Shown piece by piece: positions 1-45,084 of a stretch of DNA of 64,000 nucleotides (the first letter of the stretch is position 1; each line of letters begins with the position of its first letter). The stretch comes from Lachnospiraceae bacterium. GTDB taxonomy: Bacteria; Bacillota; Clostridia; Lachnospirales; Lachnospiraceae. The stretch is taken from NCBI GenBank assembly GCA_017503735.1, contig JAFVSN010000005.1, forward strand, positions 7,628 through 71,627. Direction: 5' to 3'. Both the position numbers and the translations under genes were made by a program. The notes below the pieces were generated by a model. That model was not told the DNA's origin. It did no database searches and worked only from the letters and a program-made list of their open reading frames with translations.

Positions 1-96
1 TATGGGAATGTGGATTTGAATATCGTGTATGAGACGCTGAAAAATGACATGCCGGAGTTACTGGAAATACTAGAAGATGAGCAAATGGATGCGTAA
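1..96 (+). CDS. 3' end of a CDS entering from upstream; tail resembles DUF86/HepT-type toxin C-terminus
   Basis: Frame 1 is open from base 1 to TAA at 94-96. The tail YGNVDLNIVYETLKNDMPELLEILEDEQMDA resembles the conserved C-terminal helix of DUF86 proteins. This is a recalled pattern and was not searched. Confidence 0.35.
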   Translation, partial: YGNVDLNIVYETLKNDMPELLEILEDEQMDA

Positions 97-174
97 ATAA
101 AACTTTACAAAAAACGTACGATTTCTTATAAAATTATTCTGGAGTTATTGAAAAATCCTACGAACAACCCAAAA

Positions 175-219
175 TGCAACCACAAGTTGCAAAAATAATA
201 TCTTCAAGTTGCTTGCAAC
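175..219 (+). promoter_or_regulatory. Two inverted repeats built on GCAAC/GTTGC; candidate operator sites
   Basis: TGCAACcacaaGTTGCA at 175-191 has 6-bp arms. GTTGCttGCAAC at 208-219 has 5-bp arms and overlaps the -35 hexamer of the downstream promoter. Confidence 0.45.
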
Positions 220-241
220 CGCTATGTTCTTTTGCTATAAT
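213..241 (+). promoter_or_regulatory. Sigma-70/SigA-type promoter of the HTH-glmM operon
   Basis: TTGCAA (213-218), a 17-nt spacer, then TATAAT (236-241). It lies about 40 nt upstream of the RBS AAGGAG and the ATG at 284. Confidence 0.6.
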
Positions 242-283
242 GGAGCACGTAGTATAGTAGTATGTGAAAAAAGGAGAACGTAT

Positions 284-1906
284 ATGACCATCGGACAGAA
301 ACTTATTCACTTACGAAACGTAGCGGATATGTCCCAGGAACAGCTTTCGGAAGAACTGGGGGTGTCCCGCCAGTCCATCTCTAAATGGGAAATGGACCAG
401 GCTCTTCCGCAGATTGACAAGGTAATCCAGCTTGCGGAGATTTTCGGCGTAACCACAGATGAATTGTTACTTGATAAAATAGAGATTAACCGTACTCCGG
501 TAAAGGGACCGAGAAAGTTAAAGTACTTCGGTACCGACGGATTCCGGGGCGAGGCAAATGTAAATCTGACTTCCATGCAGGCTTATAAGGTGGGACGGTT
601 CCTTGGATGGTACTTTTCTTCCAAGCTTTCCGGTTGTGGGAAACCGGGATATCGTCCGCGGATTGTCATCGGGAAAGATACCCGCCGTTCCAGTTATATG
701 TTGGAGTATTCCATTGTGGCGGGAATGACTGCCAGCGGAGCGGATGTGTACATGCTGCACGTTATCACCACGCCGGGAGTGTCCTATGTGACCCGGAAGG
801 ATGAGTTTGATTGCGGTATTATGATTACGGCGTCCCACAATCCGTTTGGAGATAACGGGATCAAGGTGCTGAACCGTTACGGTGAGAAACTGGACGATGA
901 GACTACAGCGTTAATTGAGGCTTATATCGACGGAGATTTACATGAGCTGGGTGTCACCGGTGAGGATTTGCCTTTAGCTCAGGGAGCGAAGCTCGGTTGT
1001 ATCCATGAGTATTCCGCAGGACGGAACCGTTACACCGGCTACTTGATTTCTCTGGCATCTAATTCCTATAAGAGACTGAAAATCGGTCTGGATTGTGCCA
1101 ACGGTGCGGCTTGGAGTATCGCAGGGGCGGTGTTTTCCGCATTGGGAGCCCAGACTTATGTCATCGGTGACGAGCCGGACGGTATCAACATCAACGAAGG
1201 TTGCGGTTCCACCCATATCGAGAAGTTAAAGAAGCTGGTAAAGGAAAAGCATTTAGATTTGGGTTTTGCTTTTGACGGTGACGCGGACCGTTGCATAGCG
1301 GTGGACGAAAACGGAAACGAAGTAGACGGGGATGCCATGATTTATATTCTCGGCAAGCGTATGAAGATGAGGGGAACCTTAAACGACAATACGGTCGTGA
1401 CTACGATTATGTCCAACTCCGGCTTTGTGGCAAGTCTTGAAGAAGCCGGAATGAAGTGTGTACAGACCAAAGTAGGCGACCGCTTTGTCTACGAATGTAT
1501 GCAGAATAACGATTACGCTATCGGCGGCGAGCAGTCCGGTCACATTATTTTAAAGAAATATGCCACCACCGGTGACGGCATTTTGACGGCGATTATGATT
1601 GCGGAGGAGCTTTGCGATTCCAAGTCTTCTTTGGCGAAGTTGGCAGAGCCGATTCATCTGTATCCGCAGTTTTTAAAGAATGTGAGAGTAAAGAATAAAG
1701 CGGCGGTGCTGGCCGATACGAAAGTATTAAAGGCAAAGGAAGAAGTGGAAAAGCTCATCAATAAAAAGGGAAGGGTACTTCTTCGGGAAAGCGGCACGGA
1801 GCCGGTGATTCGCGTGATGGTAGAGAGTGAATCTCAGGAAAGATGTGTAGAGTATGCCGAAATGATTGTAAAAGTAATTGTCGAAGGAGGACATTGCGTT
1901 GAATAA
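284..1906 (+). CDS. glmM: XRE-family HTH domain fused in frame to phosphoglucosamine mutase (GlmM)
   Basis: RBS AAGGAG lies 7 nt before ATG 284. The N-terminus, MTIGQKLIHLRNVADMSQEQLSEELGVSRQSISKWEMDQALPQIDKVIQLAEIFGVTTDELL, is a classic Cro/C1-type HTH. A linker follows, then a full-length GlmM (KYFGTDGFRG, phosphoserine loop TASHNP, metal loop FDGDADR, GEQSGH, RESGTEPVIRVMVE). No start codon separates the HTH from the mutase part. Confidence 0.9.
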   Translation: MTIGQKLIHLRNVADMSQEQLSEELGVSRQSISKWEMDQALPQIDKVIQLAEIFGVTTDELLLDKIEINRTPVKGPRKLKYFGTDGFRGEANVNLTSMQAYKVGRFLGWYFSSKLSGCGKPGYRPRIVIGKDTRRSSYMLEYSIVAGMTASGADVYMLHVITTPGVSYVTRKDEFDCGIMITASHNPFGDNGIKVLNRYGEKLDDETTALIEAYIDGDLHELGVTGEDLPLAQGAKLGCIHEYSAGRNRYTGYLISLASNSYKRLKIGLDCANGAAWSIAGAVFSALGAQTYVIGDEPDGININEGCGSTHIEKLKKLVKEKHLDLGFAFDGDADRCIAVDENGNEVDGDAMIYILGKRMKMRGTLNDNTVVTTIMSNSGFVASLEEAGMKCVQTKVGDRFVYECMQNNDYAIGGEQSGHIILKKYATTGDGILTAIMIAEELCDSKSSLAKLAEPIHLYPQFLKNVRVKNKAAVLADTKVLKAKEEVEKLINKKGRVLLRESGTEPVIRVMVESESQERCVEYAEMIVKVIVEGGHCVE

Positions 1907-2561
1907 GTTAGTGAAAACAAAAGAGCTGTATGCGTCCCAACCGGAGTATCTGACAGAACTGTTTGATGGCTGTGAGTATCCGTGGGAAATGTTGCCGAAG
2001 TTAAAGGGCTACATTCAGGCACTCATCGAAAAGGGAATTCCGGGGTATACCCTGTATGCCGAAGGCGTGCTTGTGGGGGAGAACGTAAAGATTTATCCGA
2101 CGGCTACCATCGAAGGACCGACCATTATCGGTTCCGGTACCGAGGTGCGTCCGGGGGCATTTATCCGCGGCAGTGTGATCACCGGTGAAAACTGCGTGAT
2201 GGGAAATTCCTCGGAGTTTAAGAACTGCGTGCTTCTTGATAAGGTGCAGGTGCCGCATTACAACTACATCGGCGACTCCATCATGGGCAACAAGGCTCAC
2301 ACCGGCGCGGGCACCATTTGTTCCAATTTAAAGTCCGACGGTAAGGCGGTTGTGGTACACGGCGACGTGGACTACGAGACCGGACTTCGTAAAATCGGCG
2401 GCATTTTGGCAGACGGTGCGGACGTGGGATGCGGTTCCGTAATCAATCCGGGGACCGTCATCGGTAAAAACACTTCCGTATATCCGTTAACTTCTTTGCG
2501 TGGCGTATATCCGGCCAACTGTATTGTAAAGGATACGAAGACGGTTGTGGAACGTAGATAG
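1899..2561 (+). CDS. Left-handed beta-helix (hexapeptide repeat) acyltransferase, GlmU C-terminal-domain-like
   Basis: Hexapeptide repeats are visible (IGSGTEVRPGAFIRGSVITGENCVMGNSSEFKNCVLLDKVQV...IGDSIMGNKAHTGAGT...). RBS GAAGGAGG lies 8 nt before TTG 1899; the ORF track starts at TTG 1878. The gene overlaps the glmM stop. Confidence 0.65.
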   Translation: MNKLVKTKELYASQPEYLTELFDGCEYPWEMLPKLKGYIQALIEKGIPGYTLYAEGVLVGENVKIYPTATIEGPTIIGSGTEVRPGAFIRGSVITGENCVMGNSSEFKNCVLLDKVQVPHYNYIGDSIMGNKAHTGAGTICSNLKSDGKAVVVHGDVDYETGLRKIGGILADGADVGCGSVINPGTVIGKNTSVYPLTSLRGVYPANCIVKDTKTVVERR

Positions 2562-2662
2562 AAGTTTTGCAGAGACGAAAAAAGAAGGAAGTTTATTACA
2601 GAGAATAGGCTGTTCTGAAACGGATGGCATGTCAAATTATATATGAAAAGGAGATCATCACC

Positions 2663-3373
2663 ATGAATTTTATCAAAGTAAACAACTATGACGAGCTCAG
2701 CACCAAGGCAGCAGCGCTTATTTGCGCACAGGTTGTCATGAAGCCGGACTGCGTATTAGGCCTTGCAACCGGTTCCTCCCCGCTGGGCACTTACGAGAAG
2801 ATTGCAGAGAAGTGTGCAAAGGGTGAGGTAGACTTTTCCAAGGTTTCTTCCATTAACTTGGATGAGTACGTAGGCCTTGATGGCACCAACGACCAGAGCT
2901 ACCGTTACTTCATGAACACGAACCTTTTTGAGAAGATTAACATTGACGTAACCAAGACCAACGTGCCGAACGGTTGCGTAGCAGACCTTAAGGCAGAGTG
3001 TGAAGCTTACGATGCCTTAATTGCACAGTCCGGTGGCATTGACTTACAGCTTCTCGGTATCGGTCTTGACGGTCACATCGGTTTTAACGAGCCGGATACT
3101 TACTTTGAGAAGGCTACCCATGTAGTAGACCTTGACCCGTCCACCATCGAAGCAAATGCCCGTTTCTTTGCTTCCGAGGCAGATGTGCCGAGAAAGGCAG
3201 TTACCATGGGAATGGGTGGCATCATGAGCGCAAAGAAGGTACTCTTAATCGCCAACGGCAAGAACAAGAAGGATATCGTAGAAAAAGCATTCTTCGGTCC
3301 GATTACTCCGTCCTGCCCGGCATCCATTTTGCAGTTGCATCCGGATTTGACTGTGATTTACAGTGAGAACTAA
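2663..3373 (+). CDS. nagB: Glucosamine-6-phosphate deaminase
   Basis: MNFIKV...LGLATGSSPLGTYEKI...LDEYVGL...GIGLDGHIGFNEP are typical NagB motifs. RBS AAAGGAG lies upstream of ATG 2663. Confidence 0.9.
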   Translation: MNFIKVNNYDELSTKAAALICAQVVMKPDCVLGLATGSSPLGTYEKIAEKCAKGEVDFSKVSSINLDEYVGLDGTNDQSYRYFMNTNLFEKINIDVTKTNVPNGCVADLKAECEAYDALIAQSGGIDLQLLGIGLDGHIGFNEPDTYFEKATHVVDLDPSTIEANARFFASEADVPRKAVTMGMGGIMSAKKVLLIANGKNKKDIVEKAFFGPITPSCPASILQLHPDLTVIYSEN

Positions 3374-3415
3374 GAAATAAGTCCGTTATTTGCTTGTTGA
3401 ATAAGCTATCATAAT

Positions 3416-3460
3416 AAAAAGACTCGTCAAGGGCATGCTACGCATCCTTGACGAGTTTTC
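3416..3460. terminator. Bidirectional intrinsic terminator between nagB and the convergent lipoprotein gene
   Basis: An 11-bp stem, ACTCGTCAAGG (3422-3432) / CCTTGACGAGT (3446-3456), is flanked by an A-run upstream and a T-run downstream. Confidence 0.75.
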
Positions 3461-3465
3461 TTATG

Positions 3466-4224
3466 TTAGCCTCTCACATAACCCAAAAACAACTTATCAT
3501 AATTTGTTAAAATTTCATAGATAAATCCTAAAACTGTTTCCATCTCTTCGGCGCTGGCTTGACTGGTAAATTGTTCGATAAATGCTCTGTCTATGACTAC
3601 TGGATCATACACATATTTTCCTATGTATGGGAGGTAATAATCTGATCTAAAAACTTCTCTGGTAATAAGCTTTTTAGTAATTCCTAATGAATCCAAAACA
3701 GTTCCAAACTCCGTTGGAAGGTAAAGGTGCTCGTCACGGGGAAGTTCCATATTAGCGGTAGCTATGATTATATTAAGACCTACATGGTAGAAGTCACCGT
3801 CTACAAAACTCATCTCGGCATAGAAAGGATCGTATTCTTTAACGACACTGCCATCGTCTTGTGTAACGACACTGCCATCGTCTTGTAGCTGTCGACGGCC
3901 AAAAGTGGTTATACTGATAAATTTTGAGGATACTACATCGGACTCTCCTAAAAATTCTGTTGCAAAGCGATATGCCAAACATTCAAACGCATTCATTATA
4001 TCATCTGCGGTTACCTCTCCCCCGGCAGCTTTAATTTCTTCCGGTGATTGAATCGGGTCAGGTATAGGATACCGATTGGTTAATTGACTAAAATCAAATT
4101 CTTCATTCGCGACATTGCTCTGTTCGTCTGTATTTTTGTCGTCAGAGCATCCTGCACCCCCAAATGTCAGCAGCCCTATGGTAAGAACTGTCATACAAGT
4201 CTTTCGCCACGGTTTTTTCATCAT
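3466..4224 (-). CDS. Putative lipoprotein, function unknown
   Basis: Signal peptide plus lipobox-like LLTFGGAGC|SDD. The gene looks visibly AT-richer than its neighbours. It contains a 24-bp tandem duplication (DDGSVVTQ/DDGSVVKE). Confidence 0.55.
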   Translation of the reverse strand: MMKKPWRKTCMTVLTIGLLTFGGAGCSDDKNTDEQSNVANEEFDFSQLTNRYPIPDPIQSPEEIKAAGGEVTADDIMNAFECLAYRFATEFLGESDVVSSKFISITTFGRRQLQDDGSVVTQDDGSVVKEYDPFYAEMSFVDGDFYHVGLNIIIATANMELPRDEHLYLPTEFGTVLDSLGITKKLITREVFRSDYYLPYIGKYVYDPVVIDRAFIEQFTSQASAEEMETVLGFIYEILTNYDKLFLGYVRG

Positions 4225-4366
4225 ATCCCCCTTTTAGTAGTGTATTGTTAATTCCTAAATAAGCTACGATGTTATTTTAGCATAGGAAGGATGTGATTAC
4301 AATAGGCGAAGGAAAATGAGGAAGGGTGCAAAAAAATGTCGAAAAGAAAAGTTTTTGCACTTGAGT

Positions 4367-4397
4367 GCATAAACTTGATTTTTTTGCAAGTTTATGC
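4367..4397. promoter_or_regulatory. Perfect 11-bp inverted repeat upstream of the AAA ATPase gene
   Basis: GCATAAACTTG (4367-4377) and CAAGTTTATGC (4387-4397) are separated by a 9-nt T-rich spacer, 30 nt before ATG 4428. A second inverted repeat, TGCAAAAA/TTTTTGCA, lies at 4327-4359. Confidence 0.4.
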
Positions 4398-4427
4398 TAC
4401 GATATAGTTGTGAGGAGGTACGAAATT

Positions 4428-5747
4428 ATGATTGAAACTCGTACGTTGAAAAAGAGAGACATTTATTTGAACAAATTAATTGCATTTCAGGACACAGAGC
4501 CGGTAAAGGTAGTTACCGGGATTCGTCGTTGCGGCAAATCCAGCCTGTTACAATTAATGGCAATGCATTTAAGAGAGAACGGTGTTTCCGACAATCAGAT
4601 TATAGAAATGAATTTTGAGTCCCATGATTTTAATCGGATGTCTGCGGACGAATTTTATGAATATGTAAAGCAAAAGGTTTTACCGGGAAAACGGATGTAT
4701 CTGTTCTTTGATGAGTTGCAGAGAATACCGGGTTGGGAGGAGACCGTGAATTCCTTTCGGGTGGATTTTAACTGTGATATTTATATCACGGGTTCCAATG
4801 CATATTTACTATCTTCGGAGTATGCCACGTATCTTTCGGGTAGGTGTGTGGAGATAAAGATGCTGCCGCTTTCCTTCCGTGAGTTTTTGTATTTTCATGA
4901 CTTTGAAGTGAAAGAAAGCGAAAGTGTATTGGGAGGGAAACGGCTACAGGTTCTTGACAAGCAGGGAGAGCGCTATGATTTGAGGGATACGTTTGAGGCA
5001 TATATGCGTCTTGGAGGGATGCCGGGAATTGCAGAAGTAGGGCTTAATCAGGAACGGGCATTGGTGCTGTTAGACGGAATCTATTCCACGGTTATTGTGA
5101 GAGATATATTAGAAAGAGAGAAGAGAAGGGGACAAAAAAGTATTGCAGATCCTATGTTGCTACGGAAAATTATATTGTTTTTGGCGGATAATATCGGTAG
5201 TAATATCTCTGTTTCGTCCATCGGAAACGTTCTTGTAAATGAAGGGCTGTTAGAGTGTGAAGGGCGGAAGGGTTTGCCGAGTGCACATACAGTACAGGCA
5301 TATGTGAATGCGTTGCTAGAGTCTTATTTTTACTATGATATCAAACGGTTTGATATTAAGGGAAAAGAGTATCTGAGGACACTGGGGAAGTATTATATTG
5401 TAGATATGGGACTTCGGAATTATCTTTTAGGTTTTCGGAACAGGGATAGCGGGCACGCATTGGAAAATGTTGTGTACTTTGAATTGTTGCGCAGAGGGTA
5501 TGATGTGGCAATCGGAAAAGTGGATAACAGTGAAGTGGATTTTGTGGCTACGAAAGCAGATGATAAGCTGTATGTCCAGGTAACCGAATCTATGACAAAT
5601 GAGGAAGTTCGTAAGAGGGAACTTGCTCCGCTTCAGAAGATAAATGATAATTACGAAAAGATAGTGTTATCGCTTGAAACGGGACTTGATTCATCCTATG
5701 AAGGAATAAAATCATTGTCAATTGTCGATTGGTTGCTTGCGGAATAG
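4428..5747 (+). CDS. AAA+ ATPase of the COG1373 type (AAA_14 N-domain plus DUF4143-like C-domain)
   Basis: Walker A is GIRRCGKSS and Walker B is YLFFDELQ. The C-terminal EVDFVA...YVQVTES motif is nuclease-fold-like. RBS GAGGAGG precedes ATG 4428. Confidence 0.75.
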   Translation: MIETRTLKKRDIYLNKLIAFQDTEPVKVVTGIRRCGKSSLLQLMAMHLRENGVSDNQIIEMNFESHDFNRMSADEFYEYVKQKVLPGKRMYLFFDELQRIPGWEETVNSFRVDFNCDIYITGSNAYLLSSEYATYLSGRCVEIKMLPLSFREFLYFHDFEVKESESVLGGKRLQVLDKQGERYDLRDTFEAYMRLGGMPGIAEVGLNQERALVLLDGIYSTVIVRDILEREKRRGQKSIADPMLLRKIILFLADNIGSNISVSSIGNVLVNEGLLECEGRKGLPSAHTVQAYVNALLESYFYYDIKRFDIKGKEYLRTLGKYYIVDMGLRNYLLGFRNRDSGHALENVVYFELLRRGYDVAIGKVDNSEVDFVATKADDKLYVQVTESMTNEEVRKRELAPLQKINDNYEKIVLSLETGLDSSYEGIKSLSIVDWLLAE

Positions 5748-5787
5748 TTTGTTGGCAAAAGGAATAGCAGGAAAAGGAGCGATTGCT

Positions 5788-6657
5788 TTGGATAGAAAAA
5801 AGAAAGGCCTCTTCGTAGGTCTTTGTACGAAAGATATTCTATATTACACCGACGAACTGCCGGATTATAATCACAAATCCAAAACCGAGGACTTTGCTAC
5901 TTACATCGGTGGCCCTGCGGCAAATGCAGCCATTACCTATGCGGTGCTGGGAGGAGATGCTACTCTTGCTACCTGTCTCGGGAACAGTATGGAAAGCAAG
6001 GCGATGATAGAGGAGTTGAAGGGGTACGGAGTGAAGGTGCTTAATTTTTCAGAGAATGACACGGTGCCGAATACAGCATGCATTGTGGTATCAAGTGACG
6101 GAAAGCGGACCATTTTAAGCGGGCAACACAAGTTTGAGGTAAATCGTGAGTATGATGTATCGGGCTATGATTTTGCGTTGTTTGACTGCAACCAGCAGGA
6201 GGTTTCTTTGGATATTTTATCCGGTATGGATGTGACGGAAGGAAAAACGGTGGTGTTGGATGCGGGAAGTGTTAAGCCGAATATAGAAGTATTCCTTGAG
6301 AGAGCGGACATTGTCATTGCTTCCGAGGATTTTAAAGATGCGGCGGGGAATACCATATTCGAAATGAATTGTAATGCTGCGCACAAGGCAATTACCCGGG
6401 GAGAGAAGCCGATTCTGTACCTTGGAACAGAGATTGAGCGGAGGGACTGCTCGGTTTTGCCGGAGAAAACAGAGATTCCGGTGGAAGCGGTAGAAGCGGT
6501 GGACACGTTAGGAGCGGGAGATATTTTCCACGGAGCTTTTTGTTACGGGTATTTTGAGAAAGAGTATTCCTGCGAAGAAGCGTTACGGTTTGCCGGGAAG
6601 GTAGCAAGTGAAAGTGTGAAATACCGGGGGCCGAGGGAGTGGATGCGGCACCGGTAA
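5788..6657 (+). CDS. PfkB/ribokinase-family carbohydrate kinase
   Basis: C-terminal signature DTLGAGDIFHGAF. RBS AAAGGAG lies 8 nt before TTG 5788; the ORF track start at 5722 would overlap the preceding gene. Confidence 0.7.
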   Translation: MDRKKKGLFVGLCTKDILYYTDELPDYNHKSKTEDFATYIGGPAANAAITYAVLGGDATLATCLGNSMESKAMIEELKGYGVKVLNFSENDTVPNTACIVVSSDGKRTILSGQHKFEVNREYDVSGYDFALFDCNQQEVSLDILSGMDVTEGKTVVLDAGSVKPNIEVFLERADIVIASEDFKDAAGNTIFEMNCNAAHKAITRGEKPILYLGTEIERRDCSVLPEKTEIPVEAVEAVDTLGAGDIFHGAFCYGYFEKEYSCEEALRFAGKVASESVKYRGPREWMRHR

Positions 6658-14389: not shown

Positions 14390-16906
14390 CTAATTGTTAC
14401 TCTTTGCGGTGTCAATGCCTGCGGCGCCGACTAAACCGAGACGCTCCGCAGCTTCTTCACGCATTTTATATTTTAACACTTTTCCCGCTGCATTCATAGG
14501 GAAAGATTTCACAAATTCGATATATTTCGGAACTTTATGACGGGCCATGCTTGCGGCGATGTAGTCATGCATTTCCTCTATGGTCATGGACTTGCCGTCC
14601 TTTAAGATAATGCAAGCCATGGCTTCCTCACCGTACTTTTTATCCGGAACACCGATGACCTGTACATCCTGTACATTCGGATGGGTGTAAATGAATTCCT
14701 CGATTTCTTTCGGATAAATGTTTTCACCGCCACGGATAATCATATCCTTAAGACGGCCGGTGATGCGGTAGTTGCCGTCTTTATCCCGGCAGGCAAGGTC
14801 ACCGGAGTGGAGCCAGCCCTGTGCATCTACGGTACCGCGGGTTGCTTCCGGCATCTTATAGTAGCCCTTCATGGTATTGTAACCGCGGGAACAGAATTCG
14901 CCGTTTTCGCCGTCTGCCACTTCTTCGCCGGTTTCCGGATCGATAATTTTACACTCGATGTGAGGGAAGTTATAACCTACGGTGTCGCAACGTAAGTCTA
15001 ACGGGTCGGTCCATGCGGACATGGTGCTTCCCGGAGAAGACTCGGTCTGTCCGTATACGCTGACGATGCCGATCATATTCATTTCGTTAGGATCTGCCGC
15101 ACGGCGCATTAATTCCGGTGGGCACCCCGCACCTGCCATAATACCGGTACGCATATGGGAGAAGTCCGTCTTTCTGTAATCTTCGTGATTGAACATTGCG
15201 ATAAACATAGTCGGTACGCCGTTAAAGCAGGTGATACGCTCCTGATTGATGCAGGCCAGAGAGGACTTCGCGGAGAAGTACGGCATCGGGCATACGGTTG
15301 CACCGTGGGTCAGGGAAGCGGTCATGGAAAGTACCATACCGAAACAATGGAACATCGGTACCTGAATCATCATACGGTCCGCGGTGGAGAGCCCCATGCG
15401 GTCACCGATACATTTTCCGTTGTTGACTACATTATAATGGGTTAACATAACGCCCTTCGGGAAGCCGGTGGTTCCGGAGGTGTACTGCATATTACATACA
15501 TCTTCCGGCTTTACTCTTGCTGCCATACGGTTCAGTTCTTCCTGCGGAACTAAGTTACCGCGTTCCATGGCTTCGTCAAAGGTAAGACATCCCGGCTGCT
15601 TAAAGCCTACGGTGATAACGTTACGAAGGAACGGAAGACGTTTACAATGCAGCGGTTCCCCCGGTTTGCTTGTGGCAATTTCCGGACAAATCTCATTGAT
15701 GATTTCTCTATAGTTGGAATCCAGACAGGACTCTACCATAACTAAGGTGTGGGTATCGGACTGGCGGAACAAATAGTCTGCCTCGTGTCTTTTATAGGCG
15801 GTATTCACCGTAACCAAAACCGCACCGATTTTGGTGGTAGCCCAAAAGGTGATGAACCATGCCGGAACGTTGGTTGCCCAGATGGATACTTTGCTTCCGG
15901 CCTTTACACCCATGGAAATCAATGCCTTTGCAAATTGGTCTACATCCTCACGGAACTGTTCGTAGGTACGCACATAATCCAATGTGGTATATTTGAACGC
16001 ATACTGATCCGGGAACTCTTCTACCATACGATCCAGTACCTGAGAGAATGTCAGATTGATTAACTCATCCTTCTTCCATACATACTGACCGGTACCGTCA
16101 TGGTTCGGATACAATGCTTTTTTCTTGCCACGGGTCTTTTCAAAGCGGCTCATATAGTTGACAAAGTGGGTAAAAATCACCTCGTAATCCGGCAAATCTT
16201 CCATCCATTCGGTCTTCCACTCTAAGGAAATAAAGCCATCGTAGTCGATGGAAGAGAGGGCGCGCATAATGTCCGCCACCGGCATGGAACCTTCGCCGAT
16301 TAAGTTGTAGGTATCCTTGTCATCGGAGTCACGTAAGTGTACATGTTTTACATAAGCTCCGAGATTTTTAATGGTAGTATCCGCGCTTTCCTCACAGTCC
16401 CGGTACGGATGCTGTACATCCCATAATGCAGCCAGATAGTCGCAGGCAAAATCATCCAACATGGAGCGCAGACGGGCGGTGTCGGAAAAAATACCGCTGG
16501 TCTTCACAAGAACGGTTACTTCTGCAGCCTCTGCCTCCTGTAATAATTCGGTTAAACGGGTGCGGACAAGGTCTTCTTTATCCTGCAGGGCAACTACGGA
16601 TACATACGGTACCTCGGCCTGCTTTGCAATCTGGATTAATTGTTTTACCAAGGCAACCGCGTCGTTTCCCTCTACGGACAAATCGCAGGAGGTATCAAAA
16701 CACGGAATGGAGAGCCTCTTTTCTCTCAACTGACGAACGGTTGCGCCGATGTTATATTTATGGAACGGGCCGCTTTTTTCAGCCAAGGAAGGAACGTAAG
16801 GTAAATTGTAAACTTCCACACCTTCAAAGCGCATATCTACGCCGGCGGCAAGCCATTCTTCCCATGACAGGTGGGACCAACCTCTGGTAGAAAATGAAAG
16901 TTTCAT
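14390..16906 (-). CDS. Fusion protein: N-terminal xylose-isomerase-like TIM-barrel domain plus C-terminal AMP-forming acyl-CoA synthetase/ligase
   Basis: Residues 1 to about 265 form an AP_endonuc_2/sugar-phosphate-isomerase-like barrel (FEGVEVYN, HVHLRD, ISLEW). From about residue 290, all ANL adenylation motifs are present: YTSGTTGFPKG, YGQTE, SGD, GRLKDMIIRGGENIYP and the catalytic-Lys region AAGKVLK. RBS AGGAGG lies within the last codons of the upstream gene, with a 3-nt gap. Confidence 0.85.
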   Translation of the reverse strand: MKLSFSTRGWSHLSWEEWLAAGVDMRFEGVEVYNLPYVPSLAEKSGPFHKYNIGATVRQLREKRLSIPCFDTSCDLSVEGNDAVALVKQLIQIAKQAEVPYVSVVALQDKEDLVRTRLTELLQEAEAAEVTVLVKTSGIFSDTARLRSMLDDFACDYLAALWDVQHPYRDCEESADTTIKNLGAYVKHVHLRDSDDKDTYNLIGEGSMPVADIMRALSSIDYDGFISLEWKTEWMEDLPDYEVIFTHFVNYMSRFEKTRGKKKALYPNHDGTGQYVWKKDELINLTFSQVLDRMVEEFPDQYAFKYTTLDYVRTYEQFREDVDQFAKALISMGVKAGSKVSIWATNVPAWFITFWATTKIGAVLVTVNTAYKRHEADYLFRQSDTHTLVMVESCLDSNYREIINEICPEIATSKPGEPLHCKRLPFLRNVITVGFKQPGCLTFDEAMERGNLVPQEELNRMAARVKPEDVCNMQYTSGTTGFPKGVMLTHYNVVNNGKCIGDRMGLSTADRMMIQVPMFHCFGMVLSMTASLTHGATVCPMPYFSAKSSLACINQERITCFNGVPTMFIAMFNHEDYRKTDFSHMRTGIMAGAGCPPELMRRAADPNEMNMIGIVSVYGQTESSPGSTMSAWTDPLDLRCDTVGYNFPHIECKIIDPETGEEVADGENGEFCSRGYNTMKGYYKMPEATRGTVDAQGWLHSGDLACRDKDGNYRITGRLKDMIIRGGENIYPKEIEEFIYTHPNVQDVQVIGVPDKKYGEEAMACIILKDGKSMTIEEMHDYIAASMARHKVPKYIEFVKSFPMNAAGKVLKYKMREEAAERLGLVGAAGIDTAKSNN

Positions 16907-16909
16907 GGA

Positions 16910-18316
16910 TTAAGCCTCCTCATAAACAATTTTATTGATGGCACTGATATAGGCCTGAATACTGGAGCCGATAATATCAGTGGAAGTTCCGCGGCCGGAA
17001 TAGAGTTTTCCGTGGTCACGGAGCTTGATGATGGTTTCACCCATTGCCTCACGGCCTTCCGTTACGGAACGAATCTGGAAATCGTCCAGCTCGTAATGAC
17101 GGCCCAGAATATTTTCCAAAGCAAGGAATGCCGCATCCACCGGACCGTCGCCCAATGCAACACCCTCTAAGGTCTGGCCGTTCTTCTCAAGCTTCATCTG
17201 AGCCATGGAAGATGCGGTATTGCCGGCGGTAATGTGATAGCTGGTTAATATGTAAGTGGCCGGTACCTGCATAGCTGCGGAAGCGACGATGGTGTCCAGT
17301 TCCTTGGAGGAAATAACGTCTTTGCGTGCCGCTATCTTCCCGAATGCCTCCCATACCTTTGCACTGTCTTCTTCACTTAAGTCATAGCCTAATTTTTCAA
17401 CCGCTTTTAATACGGTAGTCATGGTATCCTGCGCGGTAAGGTTCATTTCCTCTACGTCATCCTGTACTCCGTTGTCAAACGGGGAATTCTTGCTGCGGGT
17501 GGTTTCGCAAATCCATGTAATTTGCTTTACGATGCGGTTCATTTCTACGGTACGAACCGAGCAAGTCACGCCGAAAGAATCTCCTCTGGTTGCAAGCAAA
17601 CGTGCAATGTTTGCAAGGGAAATCTGATTGGTGCAGTAAGCGGATGCCTTGATTTCCCGCACACCGTGCTTAATGGCCGCAATGGCACAGGCATCTGCCA
17701 TGGCCAATTCGTTGGAGCAGGAAAGACCGAGAACCACATTCTGAAGCTCCGGAACATTTTTATTTAAAGCATCAAAAAATTCGGCAAACTCTTCCGGAAG
17801 CATGGCACCGGTAGCGTCACATACCGTAACGGTTTTTGCACCGGCTGCAATGGCGGTTTTGATCGCCTGATATAAAAATGCTGCGTCGCTTCTGGTGGCA
17901 TCGTCTGCAATAAATTCAACATCCGGGGTCTTTTCGCAACATGCGGTTACGATTTCCTCGATGGCTTTTAACATGGCATCCGGTTTCTTGTGGAATAAGT
18001 ATTCCATTTGCACGGGACTGACGGAAGCCAATACCTGCAAACGAGGATTTTTTGCTTCTTTTACCGCATTCCATGTGGTCTCAACGCTTTCCGTATTTAA
18101 AGAAACCGGCACGGCAACAATACTGTTTTTTACTGCTGCTGCAATAGATTTGATGCGGAGCGCATCTACCTTCGGTTGGGAAATACCTTCCAGTTCGATG
18201 ACAGTTACATTTAGTTTATCTAATAGTTTCGGCAACTCGATTTTTTCTTTAAAGGATAGGGAGAATTCTTTCCCAGTCTGTTTTAACGTTGTGTCGCTGA
18301 TTCTGATTTGGTTCAT
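16910..18316 (-). CDS. 2-isopropylmalate synthase (LeuA/DRE-TIM) paralogue with substituted catalytic/metal residues and an intact C-terminal LeuA-type regulatory domain
   Basis: 468 aa from ATG 18316, with RBS AAAGGAGA. It is collinear with LeuA, but DTTLRDGEQ is DTTLKQTGKE, HxHxDxG is SCSNELA, NGIGERAGN is YCTNQISLAN, and ESGIHQDG is SPFDNGVQDD. The C-terminal approximately 130 aa keep the LeuA_dimer-like pattern (GDGPVDAAF...GREAMGE...GRGTSTDIIGSSIQAYISAIN). Confidence 0.8.
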   Translation of the reverse strand: MNQIRISDTTLKQTGKEFSLSFKEKIELPKLLDKLNVTVIELEGISQPKVDALRIKSIAAAVKNSIVAVPVSLNTESVETTWNAVKEAKNPRLQVLASVSPVQMEYLFHKKPDAMLKAIEEIVTACCEKTPDVEFIADDATRSDAAFLYQAIKTAIAAGAKTVTVCDATGAMLPEEFAEFFDALNKNVPELQNVVLGLSCSNELAMADACAIAAIKHGVREIKASAYCTNQISLANIARLLATRGDSFGVTCSVRTVEMNRIVKQITWICETTRSKNSPFDNGVQDDVEEMNLTAQDTMTTVLKAVEKLGYDLSEEDSAKVWEAFGKIAARKDVISSKELDTIVASAAMQVPATYILTSYHITAGNTASSMAQMKLEKNGQTLEGVALGDGPVDAAFLALENILGRHYELDDFQIRSVTEGREAMGETIIKLRDHGKLYSGRGTSTDIIGSSIQAYISAINKIVYEEA

Positions 18317-18473
18317 GATTTTGTCTCCTTTCATTTTACCTGTTTTCGCGCTGGCGATGCTTTGCATCAGCCCCCACCTCGTGACTCCGTCACTCGGTCG
18401 TGGGCGCGTTCGCATGCTCAGCGAGTTCGGAAGCAAGCTTCCGAACTCGCTTCGATGTTCACTTTGCCAGCAC

Positions 18474-18742
18474 GAAAAAAAGTCCCTGAAGTCATATGAC
18501 TCCAAGGACGAATAAACGATTCGCGGTACCACCTTGCTTACAGCCTCCTTACGGAAAACTGTCACTCTCGGACTCTATTAAGCCCATAGCCGATAACGAG
18601 GCTGACCGTACTCCACTACACAAATAGATATCCTTCGCAGAGTCGACTCGGGAGTGAGATTGCTGTCTTCCATCCGTACCGGTTCGCACCAACCACCGGC
18701 TCTCTGAAACCCTCAAAAAAGAAGCATAATTCCGTCACAGTC
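18474..18742 (-). promoter_or_regulatory. T-box riboswitch leader; probable Leu specifier CUC
   Basis: Read on the minus strand: a K-turn-like GACUGUGACGG...CCCGAGUC base, AG bulge AGAGAG, distal-loop GGUGCGAA, an F-box-like CUCGUUA, the T-box core GGUGGUACCGCG (+ strand 18522-18533), then a terminator stem (18482-18509) plus U7. In the specifier-loop region (AAUCUCACU) CUC is the only triplet followed by a purine. The UGGU bulge matches discriminator A73. Confidence 0.85.
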
Positions 18743-18767
18743 ATTCTTATCAATTAAAAACGAGACA

Positions 18768-20779: not shown

Positions 20780-23266
20780 ATGGTGATAAAAATTCTGAAT
20801 GAAAATTGGAGAGTAAAGGACAGAAGCTGGGATAATGATATCCCGGCTTCTGTGCATGGTGACTTATATACGGATTTATTAAAGGGGAATGTAATTGAGG
20901 ATCCGTACTACAGAGACAATGAATTGGCGGTATTGCCGTTGTCCGAAAAGGAATATGAGTATCGGACTGTGTTTACGGCAGAGGATGAGGTGCTTGGATA
21001 TGAACGGGTATTGTTGCGATTTGAAGGAATCGATACCCTTGCCGATGTTTATGTAAATGAGGCTTGTGTCGGGACGGCATACAATATGCACCGGACCTGG
21101 GAATTTGATGTAAAGGAACAGATAAAGGCAGGAGAGAATACCCTTACGGTGGTATTTCATTCACCGACGGCATATATCCGGGAAAAGTATGCAACGAAAC
21201 GATTGGACGGCACTTCGGATGCAATGAGGGGATTCCCGTATTTGCGAAAGGCGCATTGTATGTTCGGCTGGGATTGGGGTCCGAGACTTCCCGGTGCAGG
21301 GCTTTGGCGTCCGGTTTCTCTGGTAGCATATGATGTGGCTAGAATTGACAGTACTTATGTGACACAGAAGCATGAAAACGGAGAGGTGTTGTTACATACA
21401 CGGGTAGAACTGGAAACAGCCCTTGCGGAACGGTTTGTATTCGGGAAGGAACCCTCTCTTTTATTTAAGGCAGAGCCGGAGTTAAAGAAGCTTTTTGTAA
21501 AGACAGAAGTAACAGACCCGGACGGAACGGTTGTGGCTATCGGAAACGGAACGTCGGAACTTCGGATTGATAATCCGAGACTTTGGTGGCCGGCAGGGTT
21601 CGGCGACCAGCCGTTGTATACGGTAAAAGTGTCGCTGTTTTATGAAGACCGGGAGTTGGATGTTTGGGAACGGAGAATCGGATTGCGTACCATGACCATG
21701 GCTACGGAAAAAGATGCTTACGGCGAGACGTTTGCCCATAAGGTAAACGGAGTGGAGATATTTGCCATGGGTGCGGATTACATTCCGGAGGATAACCTGC
21801 TTGCAAGAACGAGTCCGGAACGGACCAGACGCTTGCTTACGGATGCAAAACTTGCAAATTTTAATTGTATCCGTGTCTGGGGCGGCGGTTATTATCCGGA
21901 GGATTGGTTTTACGATATCTGTGATGAACTGGGATTGATGGTGTGGCAGGACTTTATGTTTGCCTGTGCGGTTTATGATTTGACGGATGAATTCGAGGAA
22001 AATATCGTTGCGGAATTAAAAGACAACATAAAGCGTTTGCGTCACCATGCTTCTTTGGGGCTGTGGTGCGGAAACAATGAGATGGAGCTTTTTGTGAAGC
22101 AGGGAGAATGGGTAAATTTCCCGAAGGAAAAGAGTGATTATGTGAAGATGTATGAGTACATTTTCCCGAAGCTTTTAAAGGAGTATGATCCGGAGACCTT
22201 TTATTGGCCGGCAAGCCCGTCCAGCGGCGGTTGCTTTGACGAGCCGAATGATGAGAACAGGGGAGATGTTCATTACTGGGAGGTTTGGCACGGAAACAAG
22301 CCGATTACCGAGTACCGGAAGTTCTATTTCCGTTATCTTTCGGAGTTTGGATTCCAGTCCTTCCCTTCGGTAAAGACGATTGAAACTTTTACGTTGCCGG
22401 AGGATCGGAATATTTATTCCTATGTGATGGAAAAGCATCAGAGAAATGCGGCGGCAAACGGAAAAATGTCGAATTATATGTCCCAGACCTATTTGTATCC
22501 TACTACCTTTGACACAGTGGTATATGCCTCTCAGCTTTTGCAGGCGCAGGCCATTCGTTACGGGGTGGAACATTTCCGCAGATGGCGGGGACGTTGTATG
22601 GGAACGGTAATTTGGCAGCTAAACGATTGCTGGCCGGTGGCAAGTTGGTCTTCCATCGATTATTACGGCAGATGGAAAGCATTGCACTACTATGCAAAAC
22701 GGTTCTTTGCACCGGTGCTTTTATCCTGTGAAGAAGAAGGAATTTTGACACAGGATACCAATCCGAATGCGGAACCGTATGAGGTGGTAAAATCGGTAAG
22801 ATTTAATGTCAGCAACGAAACCATGCAGGATAAGGATGTCATTGTGGAATGGATGCTTTGTGACGCCGAAGGTGCGCAAAAGGAATGCCGTGAGACGGAA
22901 GTAAAGGTTCCGGCACTGCAAGCGGTATGGTTGGAAAAGGAAGCACTCCCGCAGGCAGACTTATACACAGACCATGTTTTTTACAGACTGAAGGAGAACG
23001 GAGAAGTTTTGGCAGAAGGAAGTGTGATTTTCTGTCAACCGAAGTACTATAAGTTTGTAGATCCGCAGCTTACCTTCCGGGTAGAGGGAAATGAAATCAT
23101 AGTAAAGTCCGAAGGGTATGCAAAGGATGTGGAAATTCTGAATGCAGAGGAAGATTTGCTTCTTTCGGATAATTACTTTGACATGGAACCGGGAGAACGC
23201 AGGGTAACCATATGCAGAGGCAATACGGAAGGAATCAGGGTGCGCAGTACCTATGATATTCGATAA
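20780..23266 (+). CDS. Glycoside hydrolase family 2, beta-mannosidase-like
   Basis: 828 aa, with N-terminal W.VKD....IPASVHGDLYTDLL..G.I.DPYY, and WWPAGFGDQPLY and WQDFMFAC motifs typical of GH2 beta-mannosidases. Confidence 0.75.
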   Translation: MVIKILNENWRVKDRSWDNDIPASVHGDLYTDLLKGNVIEDPYYRDNELAVLPLSEKEYEYRTVFTAEDEVLGYERVLLRFEGIDTLADVYVNEACVGTAYNMHRTWEFDVKEQIKAGENTLTVVFHSPTAYIREKYATKRLDGTSDAMRGFPYLRKAHCMFGWDWGPRLPGAGLWRPVSLVAYDVARIDSTYVTQKHENGEVLLHTRVELETALAERFVFGKEPSLLFKAEPELKKLFVKTEVTDPDGTVVAIGNGTSELRIDNPRLWWPAGFGDQPLYTVKVSLFYEDRELDVWERRIGLRTMTMATEKDAYGETFAHKVNGVEIFAMGADYIPEDNLLARTSPERTRRLLTDAKLANFNCIRVWGGGYYPEDWFYDICDELGLMVWQDFMFACAVYDLTDEFEENIVAELKDNIKRLRHHASLGLWCGNNEMELFVKQGEWVNFPKEKSDYVKMYEYIFPKLLKEYDPETFYWPASPSSGGCFDEPNDENRGDVHYWEVWHGNKPITEYRKFYFRYLSEFGFQSFPSVKTIETFTLPEDRNIYSYVMEKHQRNAAANGKMSNYMSQTYLYPTTFDTVVYASQLLQAQAIRYGVEHFRRWRGRCMGTVIWQLNDCWPVASWSSIDYYGRWKALHYYAKRFFAPVLLSCEEEGILTQDTNPNAEPYEVVKSVRFNVSNETMQDKDVIVEWMLCDAEGAQKECRETEVKVPALQAVWLEKEALPQADLYTDHVFYRLKENGEVLAEGSVIFCQPKYYKFVDPQLTFRVEGNEIIVKSEGYAKDVEILNAEEDLLLSDNYFDMEPGERRVTICRGNTEGIRVRSTYDIR

Positions 23267-23326
23267 AGAATCGTACAGGCGAAGCTGCGGAGAAATGTTC
23301 GGTGTGGCGAAGGAAGAGGAGACGGA

Positions 23327-24565
23327 ATGAAAAAACAATATCAAATCGATACGGAAGAGAATAAGCGTTTTTTAGAAAAGCTGAGGAAAGAATTGTTTTC
23401 CTTCGGACAAAGGTTTCCTTCTCCGGAGGGGGGCTCGTATTATCTGGGGGAGGACGGAACGCCCATAAAAGAAAGAAACAGGGAAACATGGATTACAAGC
23501 CGGATGGCTCATGTATACAGTATCGGCGTTTTGTTGGGGCAGACCGGTAGCGAAGCATTGGCGGATGCGGCACTCCGGGGGCTGACCGGAGAACTGAAAG
23601 ATGCGGAAAACGGCGGCTGGTATGCCGGGCGTACGGAAAATGGTGCAGTGTTACCGAATAAGCAGTGCTATGCCCATGCTTTTGTGATTCTGGCGGCTTC
23701 CTCCGGGGTTCTTGCAAAACGTCCGGGAGCGGAAGCTTTGTTGCGGGAAGCACTTGCGTTATATGACAAATATTTTTGGGATGAAAAAGAAGGGCTTTCC
23801 TGCGATACCTGGAATACGGAGTTTACGGAACCGGATTCTTACCGTGGTCTGAATGCCAATATGCATACCGTAGAAGCTTTTCTTGCGGCAGCGGATGTGC
23901 TGGGAGAGGAAACCTACAGAACCAGAGCCGGACGGATTATCTGCCGGGTGTTAGGATGGGCAAAAGAGAATCATTGGAGAATTCCGGAGCATTTTACGGA
24001 AGACTGGGTGCCTGATTTGGAATGCAATAAAGAAAAACCGGACGATCCGTTTAAACCTTACGGTGCGACGCCGGGGCACGGAATCGAATGGGCCAGATTG
24101 ATTGTCCAGTGGGCGTTGTCCCGTACCGAAACAGAGTCGGATAAGAACGAAAGTTATATCGAAGCGGCGGAACAGCTATATCACCGGGCGGTTTCGGATG
24201 GGTGGAGCAGAGACGGTGCACCGGGAATCGTATATACCACAGACTGGAACGGGGAGCCGGTGGTTCATGACAGAATGCATTGGACACTGGCGGAGGCAAT
24301 CAATACGTCTGCGGTATTGTACCGGGTAACCGGAAAGAAAGAGTACGCCGGGGATTACGCCGGTTTTATGGAGTATTTGGACGAATTTGTATTAGATAAA
24401 AAGAACGGCTCCTGGTTTCATCAGATGGATTGCAAGAACCGGGTCATCGGCACGGTATGGCCGGGAAAATCCGATTTGTATCATGCGGTGCAGGCAACAC
24501 TGATTCCGTATATGCCGGTAGCATGTTCCGTTGCTCCGGCGGTAAAGAAAAGTCGGAAAAAATAA
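23327..24565 (+). CDS. AGE-family (N-acylglucosamine 2-epimerase superfamily) epimerase/isomerase
   Basis: About 410 aa of (alpha/alpha)6-barrel-type sequence, with QCYAHAFVILA and HGIEWARL motifs characteristic of AGE / cellobiose-2-epimerase / sugar isomerase proteins. Confidence 0.7.
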   Translation: MKKQYQIDTEENKRFLEKLRKELFSFGQRFPSPEGGSYYLGEDGTPIKERNRETWITSRMAHVYSIGVLLGQTGSEALADAALRGLTGELKDAENGGWYAGRTENGAVLPNKQCYAHAFVILAASSGVLAKRPGAEALLREALALYDKYFWDEKEGLSCDTWNTEFTEPDSYRGLNANMHTVEAFLAAADVLGEETYRTRAGRIICRVLGWAKENHWRIPEHFTEDWVPDLECNKEKPDDPFKPYGATPGHGIEWARLIVQWALSRTETESDKNESYIEAAEQLYHRAVSDGWSRDGAPGIVYTTDWNGEPVVHDRMHWTLAEAINTSAVLYRVTGKKEYAGDYAGFMEYLDEFVLDKKNGSWFHQMDCKNRVIGTVWPGKSDLYHAVQATLIPYMPVACSVAPAVKKSRKK

Positions 24566-26223: not shown

Positions 26224-26271
26224 AAAGTAACACACAAGGCGATAAAATAAGAGGCAAGGGGCGGATTGAAT

Positions 26272-27147
26272 ATGGAAAGCCTAAAGGAATTCTTTTCAAA
26301 ATTTGTGATGTGGATGCGGATTCCCAGTATAACGGTAATCGACATACTGGAGATCATTATTATTGCGTTCATTGTTTACAACGTAATTAAATGGATCAGA
26401 TCCACGAGAGCATGGATGCCGGTAAAAGGATTAATGATTTTATTCTTTTTCTGGCTGGTAGCCTTGATTTTCAAGATGGATGTTATTTTGTGGATTTTAA
26501 ATAATACCATCGGTGTCGGTATTACAGCGATTATTATCGTGTTCCAGCCGGAAATCCGGCGGGCGTTGGAGCAGTTGGGACAGCAGAGTTTTCCGACCTC
26601 GCTTCGCATTTTTTCCGAGAACAAGGAAAGAGACGAGAGGTTTTCCGAGAAAACCGTGGAGGAGTTGGTGAAGGGTACTTTTTTCCTTGCACGACACAAG
26701 ACGGGCGCATTGATTGTCATGGAACAAGAGGTGTTTCTCGGAGAATATGAGGAGACGGGAATCGCCATCGATGCGGTTGTGACAAATCAGTTGTTAATTA
26801 ATATTTTTGAGCATAATACACCGTTGCATGACGGTGCGGTTATTGTGCGCGGAGATCGCATTGTGGCGGCTACCTGTTACCTGCCGGTATCAAAGAATAT
26901 GAGACTGAGTAAAGAATTGGGAACCAGACATCGTGCAGGCGTAGGAATCAGTGAAGTGACGGATAGTTTTACCATTATTGTATCCGAGCAGACCGGAAAG
27001 GTATCTTTGGCACAAAACGGTACATTAATCAGCAATATCGATGCGGATTATCTGCGTATGAAGTTACAGGAAATTCAGAAAGATAAGGCAAAGGTCTCCG
27101 CGGGCAGGAAAAAGCCGTTATGGAAGAAGGGAGGAGAACGTCAATGA
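26272..27147 (+). CDS. cdaA: Diadenylate cyclase CdaA (membrane-anchored DAC domain)
   Basis: Three N-terminal TM helices, then DAC motifs HDGAVIV and GTRHRAGVGISE. Confidence 0.9.
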   Translation: MESLKEFFSKFVMWMRIPSITVIDILEIIIIAFIVYNVIKWIRSTRAWMPVKGLMILFFFWLVALIFKMDVILWILNNTIGVGITAIIIVFQPEIRRALEQLGQQSFPTSLRIFSENKERDERFSEKTVEELVKGTFFLARHKTGALIVMEQEVFLGEYEETGIAIDAVVTNQLLINIFEHNTPLHDGAVIVRGDRIVAATCYLPVSKNMRLSKELGTRHRAGVGISEVTDSFTIIVSEQTGKVSLAQNGTLISNIDADYLRMKLQEIQKDKAKVSAGRKKPLWKKGGERQ

Positions 27148-44878: not shown

Positions 44879-44962
44879 GCAGTTGTGGCGGAATTGGCAT
44901 ACGCGCATGATTCAGGTTCATGTCCACGTACGTGGGTAGGGGTTCAAGTCCCCTCAACTGCA
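44879..44962 (+). tRNA. tRNA-Leu, anticodon CAG
   Basis: Manual cloverleaf: acceptor GCAGTTG/CAACTGC, A73, anticodon stem CATGA/TCATG, loop TTCAGGT (anticodon 44913-44915), a long variable arm and T-loop TTCAAGT. No CCA is encoded. Confidence 0.9.
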
Positions 44963-45001: not shown

Positions 45002-45084
45002 GCGGAAATGCTGGAATTGGCAGACAGGCATGACTAAGGATCATGTGGTCCCCGACCGTGAGGGTTCAAGTCCCTTTTTCCGCA
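45002..45084 (+). tRNA. tRNA-Leu, anticodon AAG (A at wobble position 34)
   Basis: Manual cloverleaf: acceptor GCGGAAA/TTTCCGC, A73, D-stem CTG/CAG, anticodon stem CATGA/TCATG, loop CTAAGGA (anticodon 45036-45038, G37), variable-arm hairpin GGTC/GACC and T-arm GAGGG-TTCAAGT-CCCTT. Confidence 0.85.

Follow-up and report, generated by a model that had tools for sequence, protein, structure and literature searches.

The gene described here lies in a 64,000-nt stretch of contig JAFVSN010000005.1 from a Lachnospiraceae bacterium (assembly GCA_017503735.1), and this whole stretch is referred to as the window. An open reading frame (ORF) on the forward strand between positions 284 and 1906 (ATG at 284, TAA at 1904-1906), with a Shine-Dalgarno sequence AGGAG read from the sequence at 272-276, 7 nt 5' of the ATG, encodes a protein of 540 amino acids. 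It comprises, all on the forward strand, a helix-turn-helix (HTH) domain of the XRE/Cro-C1 type (residues 1-62; positions 284-469), a linker (residues 63-79; 470-520), and a complete phosphoglucosamine mutase, GlmM (residues 80-540 and the stop codon; 521-1906), in which the codon of the predicted catalytic Ser184 is at 833-835. The Pfam model HTH_3 matched residues 14-61 with an E-value of 4.9e-14 and 52.5 bits (cut-off 23), HTH_19 and HTH_31 also exceeded their cut-offs, and PGM_PMM_I, II, III, and IV were all detected at residues 80-530 (E 2e-38 to 4e-15). The NCBIfam glmM equivalog TIGR01455 scored 507.4 bits over residues 82-532 (cut-off 447.55). An initial annotation of this DNA had proposed an in-frame fusion of an XRE-family HTH to a complete GlmM and had named four catalytic motifs; the ORF, the domain models, and the relatives described below confirmed the fusion as real and conserved, and all four motifs were found, starting at residues 182 (TASHNP, phosphoserine loop), 330 (FDGDADR, metal loop), 415 (GEQSGH, sugar loop), and 501 (RESGTEP, phosphate loop).

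The closest solved structure to the GlmM part was B. subtilis GlmM (7OJR; E 6e-127, residues 80-532). When the whole protein was searched, no PDB match at E <= 1e-5 reached into the N-terminal 79 residues, and the nearest solved structure to the HTH was the Xre-type N-terminal domain of ImmR (7T8I; E 2e-6). Residues 80-540 align end to end with canonical GlmM (7OJR, TIGR01455), including its four domains and all of its loops. The difference is at the N-terminus, where the 79 residues of HTH and linker stand in place of the "MG" that opens unfused GlmM, giving 540 amino acids rather than the stand-alone format of about 450. The initial annotation had also stated that the junction holds no start codon, and this was borne out for the linker itself: residues 62 to 97 contain no ATG, GTG, or TTG in frame. 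On either side of this interval, the closest internal starts are a TTG at residue 61, which lacks a Shine-Dalgarno sequence, and an ATG at residue 98, which is already downstream of the conserved KYFGTDGFRG start of GlmM. Because the interval between residues 62 and 97 holds no in-frame start codon, a separate GlmM is predicted to be untranslatable from the fusion mRNA. No NCBIfam model covers the fusion, hereafter HTH-GlmM, as a whole.

The distribution of HTH-GlmM was examined in 5.8 billion proteins clustered at 90% identity. The search returned at least 120 clusters, 85-96% identical to the query, all of about 540 amino acids and all with the HTH and PGM domains. A second search seeded with an Acutalibacteraceae member gave at least 120 further clusters of the same length and architecture, making more than 240 clusters overall. 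A scan of one genome per GTDB species yielded at least 491 relatives, and the best 80 of these were examined in detail; they were covered from residue 1 to at least residue 537 with 72-99% identity, and all 80 loci contained intact ORFs of 535-541 amino acids. The metagenome-assembled genomes (MAGs) behind these best 80 are labelled Lachnospiraceae, Acetatifactor, Acutalibacteraceae, Oscillospiraceae, Congzhengia, Ruminococcus, or "Clostridia", and their hosts are ruminant, horse, rabbit, and human gut. The exact protein of the window was also present on a 295-kb metagenome scaffold, JAGBBP01 (RGIG8970) carries a fusion 99% identical to that of the window, and JAZQBM01 carries the fusion as well.

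Both domains showed the signature of purifying selection, equally strong in each. Pairwise identity was computed over 81 proteins, and the ratio of non-synonymous to synonymous substitution rates (dN/dS) was computed over the Lachnospiraceae clade, where dS is about 1. The mean pairwise identity was 76% for the HTH (residues 1-62), 33% for the linker (63-79), and 78.5% for GlmM (80-540; 90% in domain I), with dN/dS values of 0.045, 0.21, and 0.045, respectively. The segment SRQS.SKWE, the expected site of the recognition helix, was at least 95% conserved, TASHNP was invariant in 81/81 proteins, and the other catalytic loops carried conservative variants only. Since the dN/dS is 0.045 for both domains, the HTH appears to be translated and to be constrained as tightly as the enzyme, with the linker evolving as a free tether.

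In a library of 50%-identity representatives, the nearest proteins without the HTH were 56-61% identical to the query, and most of the best 150 matches were about 440-470 amino acids long. All 150 alignments start no earlier than query residue 74 and give no evidence of an independent HTH-GlmM fusion, in agreement with the fusion having arisen once. The five longer proteins examined (P0125, P0126, P0169, P0235, and P0247) contained no HTH domain; P0126, P0235, and P0247 bear unassigned C-terminal extensions. P0125 and P0169 were rejected as further fusions, as they look like chimeric, truncated, or frameshifted calls that combine GlmM fragments with a fragment of a type IV secretion system coupling protein (P0125) or a SIS domain (P0169). 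The database name of the fusion proteins is plain "phosphoglucosamine mutase". In addition, the PGAP models P0272, P0274, and P0275 (MBQ8548058.1, MBR2407517.1, and MBQ8798701.1) are 504 amino acids long and start at the internal Met37, so the deposited sequences lack half of the HTH and the architecture is hidden.

The upstream regions of 79 related loci were aligned, and 842 kb of locus DNA was counted for copies of the conserved element. In the window, a perfect palindrome, TGCAAC-CACAA-GTTGCA, lies between positions 175 and 191 (predicted operator O1; core GCAAC-N5-GTTGC at 176-190), with its centre about 65 nt 5' of the predicted transcription start. Of the 79 loci, 64 carry the exact core in the 200 nt preceding the fusion gene, and 75 carry it when up to one mismatch is allowed, at about 100-115 nt from the start codon. 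Exact copies numbered 66 in the 842 kb, 65 of them within 200 nt 5' of the fusion gene, against a chance expectation of about 0.8; within the 64-kb window the exact core occurs once. The arms are kept in sequence while the 5-nt spacer varies freely, and for this reason the conservation of O1 is read as the pattern of a protein-binding site. In L073, a longer perfect palindrome, TGCAAGCAACTTATAGTTGCTTGCA, was observed about 190 nt upstream of the fusion gene besides the usual O1 nearer the gene.

Downstream of O1, an A-rich spacer on the forward strand (191-204, AAAAATAATATCTT) resembles an UP element; its A-tract is conserved in both O1- and O2-anchored alignments and may act as one. It is followed on the same strand by the right arm of a second predicted operator, O2 (205-212, CAAGTTGC), which has the core GTTGC at 208-212, is a direct repeat of 183-190, and abuts the -35 hexamer of a promoter at 213-241 (+). 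This promoter consists of TTGCAA at 213-218, a 17-nt spacer, and an extended -10 (TGCTATAAT, 233-241), and is the best sigma-70-like match in positions 1-4400 (10/12 positions and the TG). The second element GTTG(C/G/A) was present in 65/76 palindrome-bearing loci, 22-23 bp past the right arm of O1 in 62/65, and a TTGnnn -35 hexamer follows it with no gap. The promoter spacer was 17 nt in 64/65 loci, and the -10 matched TATAAT in at least 5/6 positions in 58/65. In 38/65 loci, a left arm TCAAn was also found, compared with 3% in the background, and in these O2 is thus a degenerate copy of O1. The initial annotation had listed palindromes over 175-219. The one at 175-191 proved real and family-wide, whereas that at 208-219 (GTTGC-TT-GCAAC) is palindromic only in the closest relatives, the conserved part being GTTGC (208-212) and the -35 TTGnnn.

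The genes flanking the operon vary between loci and are not syntenic, so O1 is linked to the fusion gene rather than to any neighbouring gene. No O1-type site was found upstream of glmM in 3/3 loci of unfused relatives (56-58% identical), where the operon partners are absent too. On this co-occurrence, O1 is assigned as the putative operator of this HTH. Across the 64-kb window, the 10 kb that precede it, and the DNA flanking the 80 loci (about 0.9 Mb), no other exact operator pointed to a further regulon member; a site with one mismatch at 17936 falls within a long ORF (16910-18565, -) and may be part of the leader of this gene. The predicted conserved operator at the fusion gene's own promoter is the main new result of this analysis.

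The fusion gene heads an operon of hexosamine genes. The second gene (1899-2561, +) encodes a stand-alone left-handed beta-helix acetyltransferase of 220 amino acids (Pfam Hexapep, LbH; NCBIfam Arch_glmU), and its start overlaps the glmM stop, which couples its translation to that of the fusion gene. Similarity is confined to the C-terminal glucosamine 1-phosphate (GlcN-1-P) acetyltransferase half of archaeal-type GlmU (Arch_glmU positions 214-390), and the best PDB matches of the protein were the ST0452 C-terminal domain structures 2GGO and 5Z09; a 220-residue acetyltransferase of this kind implies a split GlmU, of which no uridylyltransferase half was located. The third gene (2663-3373, +) is nagB, encoding glucosamine-6-phosphate deaminase (NCBIfam TIGR00502, 256 bits against a cut-off of 236.9). 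The acetyltransferase gene followed the fusion gene in 55/76 loci, and nagB was just downstream in the operon in 49/76.

In two loci, glmS occupies the position of nagB, 1 nt (L018, 4439-4440) and 23 nt (L077, 8270-8292) past the acetyltransferase gene. In three others, glmS comes after nagB and is separated from it by a strong hairpin with a T-run (L007, 9094-9176; L008, 9140-9258; L014, 3583-3709). A search for the glmS ribozyme (Rfam RF00234) gave no hit either in the window or in these five loci, in which glmS adjoins the operon and is preceded by gaps of only 1-127 nt, less than the ribozyme would need. The operon would accordingly encode the formation or removal of glucosamine 6-phosphate (GlcN-6-P) by NagB or GlmS, its isomerisation by GlmM, and probably the N-acetylation of GlcN-1-P. 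Since nagB and glmS interchange in the operon, NagB may run in the biosynthetic direction in ammonia-rich habitats.

Taken together, HTH-GlmM is likely to be a bifunctional trigger enzyme: a working phosphoglucosamine mutase that, through its N-terminal XRE HTH, also binds the promoter of its own gene and autoregulates the hexosamine operon. The initial annotation had suggested such a trigger-enzyme-like design, and the idea gains independent support from the purifying selection on the HTH and from the conserved palindromic operator at the gene's own promoter. The GlmM enzymes of B. subtilis and S. aureus dimerise via domain 1 and form an M-shaped dimer (PMC8573169). In the fusion, the HTH would be tethered to this dimerising domain by a flexible linker of about 17 residues, and because it hangs on domain 1, one dimer would present two HTHs to O1. 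A second dimer may bind the weaker O2 cooperatively, two helical turns downstream on the same helix face. With both sites occupied, the A-rich UP-like region and the margin of the -35 would be covered, and this would set the transcription of HTH-glmM, the GlcN-1-P-acetyltransferase-like gene, and nagB (glmS in some lineages), an operon predicted to make and consume GlcN-6-P on the route to UDP-N-acetylglucosamine (UDP-GlcNAc). Negative autoregulation is favoured, because the promoter, near consensus and with an extended -10, appears intrinsically strong. The occupancy could be tuned by a ligand or by the phosphorylation state, with GlcN-6-P, GlcN-1-P, and phospho-Ser184 as candidates.

Several observations weigh against this proposal. 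O1 lies at about -65 and O2 at about -44, both upstream of the -35, as lambda CI does at OR1 and OR2 with respect to PRM; this is an activating arrangement and makes the sign of regulation less certain. In the window's own clade, O2 is a half-site with the right arm only. Domain 1, which carries the HTH, is distant from the mobile domain 4, and therefore no obvious route leads from ligand to DNA binding. In about 0.9 Mb of flanking DNA, the sole exact copy of the operator off the expected position was that of L076, 268 nt 5' of the same gene, and hence nothing beyond autoregulation is supported. Finally, an AlphaFold2 model built from 31 members (85-96% identical) had a mean predicted local distance difference test score (pLDDT) of 52, with domains I-II below 50, and was discarded; its poor quality is attributed to an alignment that lacked sequence diversity, since the eligible sequences were all more than 72% identical.

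A fuller form of the proposal holds that HTH-GlmM is the only, essential GlmM of its hosts, senses GlcN-6-P, GlcN-1-P, or its own phosphorylation, and represses the hexosamine operon, replacing glmS ribozyme and NagR circuits as RbkR replaces the flavin mononucleotide (FMN) riboswitch in Archaea. We regard this extended version as possible but doubtful. No second glmM was found in the 64-kb window or in the 6-10 kb flanking each of the 80 loci on either side; L036 and L065 have the sole additional PGM-family gene, encoding a 569-amino-acid protein that looks like a phosphoglucomutase rather than GlmM.

The strongest competitor keeps the same bifunctional protein but makes it an activator, in which dimers at O1 and O2 would bring in RNA polymerase in the manner of lambda CI at PRM and drive positive autoregulation. 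The geometry speaks for this, as both sites lie upstream of the -35 and are clear of the -10 and the start site, the -35 begins right at the end of O2, and the centre-to-centre spacing equals two helical turns; many -35 hexamers are moreover imperfect (e.g., TAGATA and TTGTTT). On the other hand, a promoter with a 17-nt spacer, a -10 conserved to the extent described above, and, in the window, a TG extension should need no activator, and the A-tract between the sites resembles an UP element, which would be blocked by bound protein. A further point against activation is that repressors make up most of the XRE family. An activator is thus rather unlikely, although the geometry gives it some weight.

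Less probable still is that HTH-GlmM acts as a transcription factor only, with a retired GlmM body serving as a hexosamine-phosphate sensor in the manner of ROK or SIS/RpiR-type regulators and with a housekeeping glmM elsewhere in the genome. Fused proteins of different orders are 72-79% identical to one another, compared with 56-61% to the nearest unfused GlmMs (one annotated as derived from a Lachnospiraceae MAG), a pattern that fits a distinct paralogous or mobile lineage. Enzyme-derived sensors, however, usually lose their catalytic residues, whereas here TASHNP is invariant, the metal, sugar, and phosphate loops are kept, and the TIGR01455 equivalog cut-off is passed. Furthermore, the gene whose translation is coupled to that of the fusion encodes a GlcN-1-P-acetyltransferase-like protein, for which the mutase product would be the substrate. 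We infer that the GlmM part is catalytically active and consider a sensor-only role unlikely.

It is quite improbable that the palindrome is not the operator of this protein but the site of another amino-sugar regulator, or an RNA hairpin or terminator, with the HTH serving protein contacts or nucleoid tethering. A terminator scan did list 191-175 (-) as a weak hairpin followed by TTTTGG. The RNA reading was nevertheless rejected: the arms are conserved in sequence with no compensatory change, the spacer is free, the stem has no more than 5-6 bp, the palindrome is upstream of the predicted promoter, and none of the minus-strand genes is transcribed into it. As for another regulator, the palindrome accompanies the HTH-fused glmM whatever the neighbours and is absent upstream of the three unfused relatives. 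Lastly, an artefact, in which a frameshift, a mis-assembly, or a wrong start joined a small XRE gene to glmM, could draw on the PGAP models that start at Met37 and on the chimeric metagenome calls P0125 and P0169, but it is effectively refuted by the intact ORFs in 80/80 independent genome loci from many studies and hosts, the more than 240 clusters of the same length, the lack of a usable start codon for a separate GlmM, and the purifying selection on the HTH in this frame.

Among known systems, the closest in logic is RbkR, an archaeal protein with an N-terminal winged HTH and an active, essential riboflavin kinase, which regulates its pathway in lineages without the FMN riboswitch (PMC5397151). 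Comparative genomics predicted its operators in front of genes belonging to the same pathway, and experiments demonstrated that it has both functions, responds to its ligand, and forms a complex with DNA (PMC5397151). HTH-GlmM likewise carries a predicted N-terminal DNA-binding domain on a pathway enzyme. RbkR fills the niche that the FMN riboswitch has in other lineages; by analogy, no glmS ribozyme was seen here next to glmS. The two differ in that RbkR is a MarR-type winged HTH on a kinase in Archaea, whereas HTH-GlmM is an XRE domain on a phosphohexomutase in Clostridia. BirA, NadR, and PutA are bacterial trigger enzymes with a fused DNA-binding domain (summarised in PMC5397151). They share with HTH-GlmM an N-terminal DNA-binding domain and a pathway enzyme domain in one chain, a likeness that in our case is seen at the sequence level only, and they autoregulate their own operon, as proposed for HTH-GlmM. 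As in the known trigger enzymes, the predicted operator precedes genes of the enzyme's own pathway (glmM, the acetyltransferase gene, and nagB or glmS). The known examples serve vitamins, cofactors, and proline, whereas HTH-GlmM would serve amino-sugar and cell-wall precursors; BirA, in addition, dimerises via its reaction intermediate, whereas GlmM is a constitutive dimer in the solved structures.

A second comparison is with lambda CI and with ImmR of ICEBs1. The HTH is nearest to the ImmR N-terminal domain, the predicted operator is a short inverted repeat, and two sites lie two helical turns apart on the regulator's own promoter. The difference is that a 460-amino-acid enzyme replaces the C-terminal oligomerisation or cleavage domain, with neither a mobile-element context nor a divergent lytic promoter. 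The glmS ribozyme and NagR/YvoA are GlcN-6-P-responsive controls of hexosamine genes in Firmicutes, where GlcN-6-P is the natural signal. They control the same pathway node as that proposed here, but NagR/YvoA belong to GntR/HutC whereas this regulator would combine XRE with an enzyme, and neither the window nor the five related loci contain a glmS ribozyme.

The initial annotation had further raised a possible coupling to cyclic di-AMP (c-di-AMP) through the cyclase CdaA, and this part found no support. The window contains cdaA (26266-27147, +; CdaA_N and DAC domains) and cdaR (27120-28388, +; YbbR), which are followed by ATP-binding cassette transporter genes and not by glmM; the fusion gene is 24 kb away. 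The cdaA-cdaR-glmM operon is conserved among Bacilli (PMC8573169). Unlike canonical glmM, the fusion gene stands outside such an operon and heads its own, with a predicted dedicated operator. Of the CdaA-contact residues in domain 2 of B. subtilis GlmM, D151, E154, and D195 correspond to E, A, and A in the fusion, so that two of the three acidic residues are lost and only one is conservatively kept, and the residue of the window CdaA matching R126 is K. The pairing of D151, E154, and D195 with R126 is that of B. subtilis, and the interface may differ between species. These comparisons speak neither for nor against a c-di-AMP link of HTH-GlmM.

Other features were observed around the operon. 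Directly upstream of the operator lies an MNT (NTP_transf_2)/HepT toxin-antitoxin pair (L001, 9003-9813; HepT ends at about window position 96), with an integrase fragment and a Fic protein further upstream in L001, and on account of these the left flank looks like accessory DNA. Downstream of the operon, an AAA_14/DUF4143 ATPase and a PfkB-family sugar kinase are encoded at 4365-6657 (+), and the kinase recurs in the closest relatives. A gene resembling a glycoside hydrolase family 2 beta-mannosidase, followed by a GlcNAc 2-epimerase-family gene (20780-24565, +), places amino-sugar or mannoside metabolism genes near the hexosamine operon. A T-box leader (Rfam, 106 bits; 18501-18747, -) was detected upstream of an HMGL-like/LeuA_dimer gene (about 16829-18286, -), and two adjacent tRNA genes are present at 44879-44962 and 45002-45084 (+).

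No description of an HTH-GlmM fusion was found in the literature, from which subscription-only papers were not covered. The initial annotation had asked whether the architecture might be common and already characterised; it proved common, but neither a paper nor a curated family describing it was found. HTH-GlmM is widespread in uncultured gut Clostridia, in hundreds of species, and apparently uncharacterised.

GlmM stands at the entry to UDP-GlcNAc and hence to peptidoglycan and other cell-envelope glycans, and the control of this node in Firmicutes is known mainly via the glmS ribozyme, NagR-type repressors, and the interaction of GlmM with CdaA. Uncultured Clostridia of the rumen and hindgut harbour the fusion family in abundance, and its putative regulatory half is invisible to annotation-based metabolic reconstructions, because the proteins bear the plain name phosphoglucosamine mutase and some gene models begin midway through the HTH. 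The predicted operator, promoter, and operon make experiments simple. If the proposed function is true, a cell-wall-precursor enzyme would join the few trigger enzymes known to carry a fused DNA-binding domain, and these bacteria would offer a directly testable case in which the catalytic state of an enzyme is read out as transcription.

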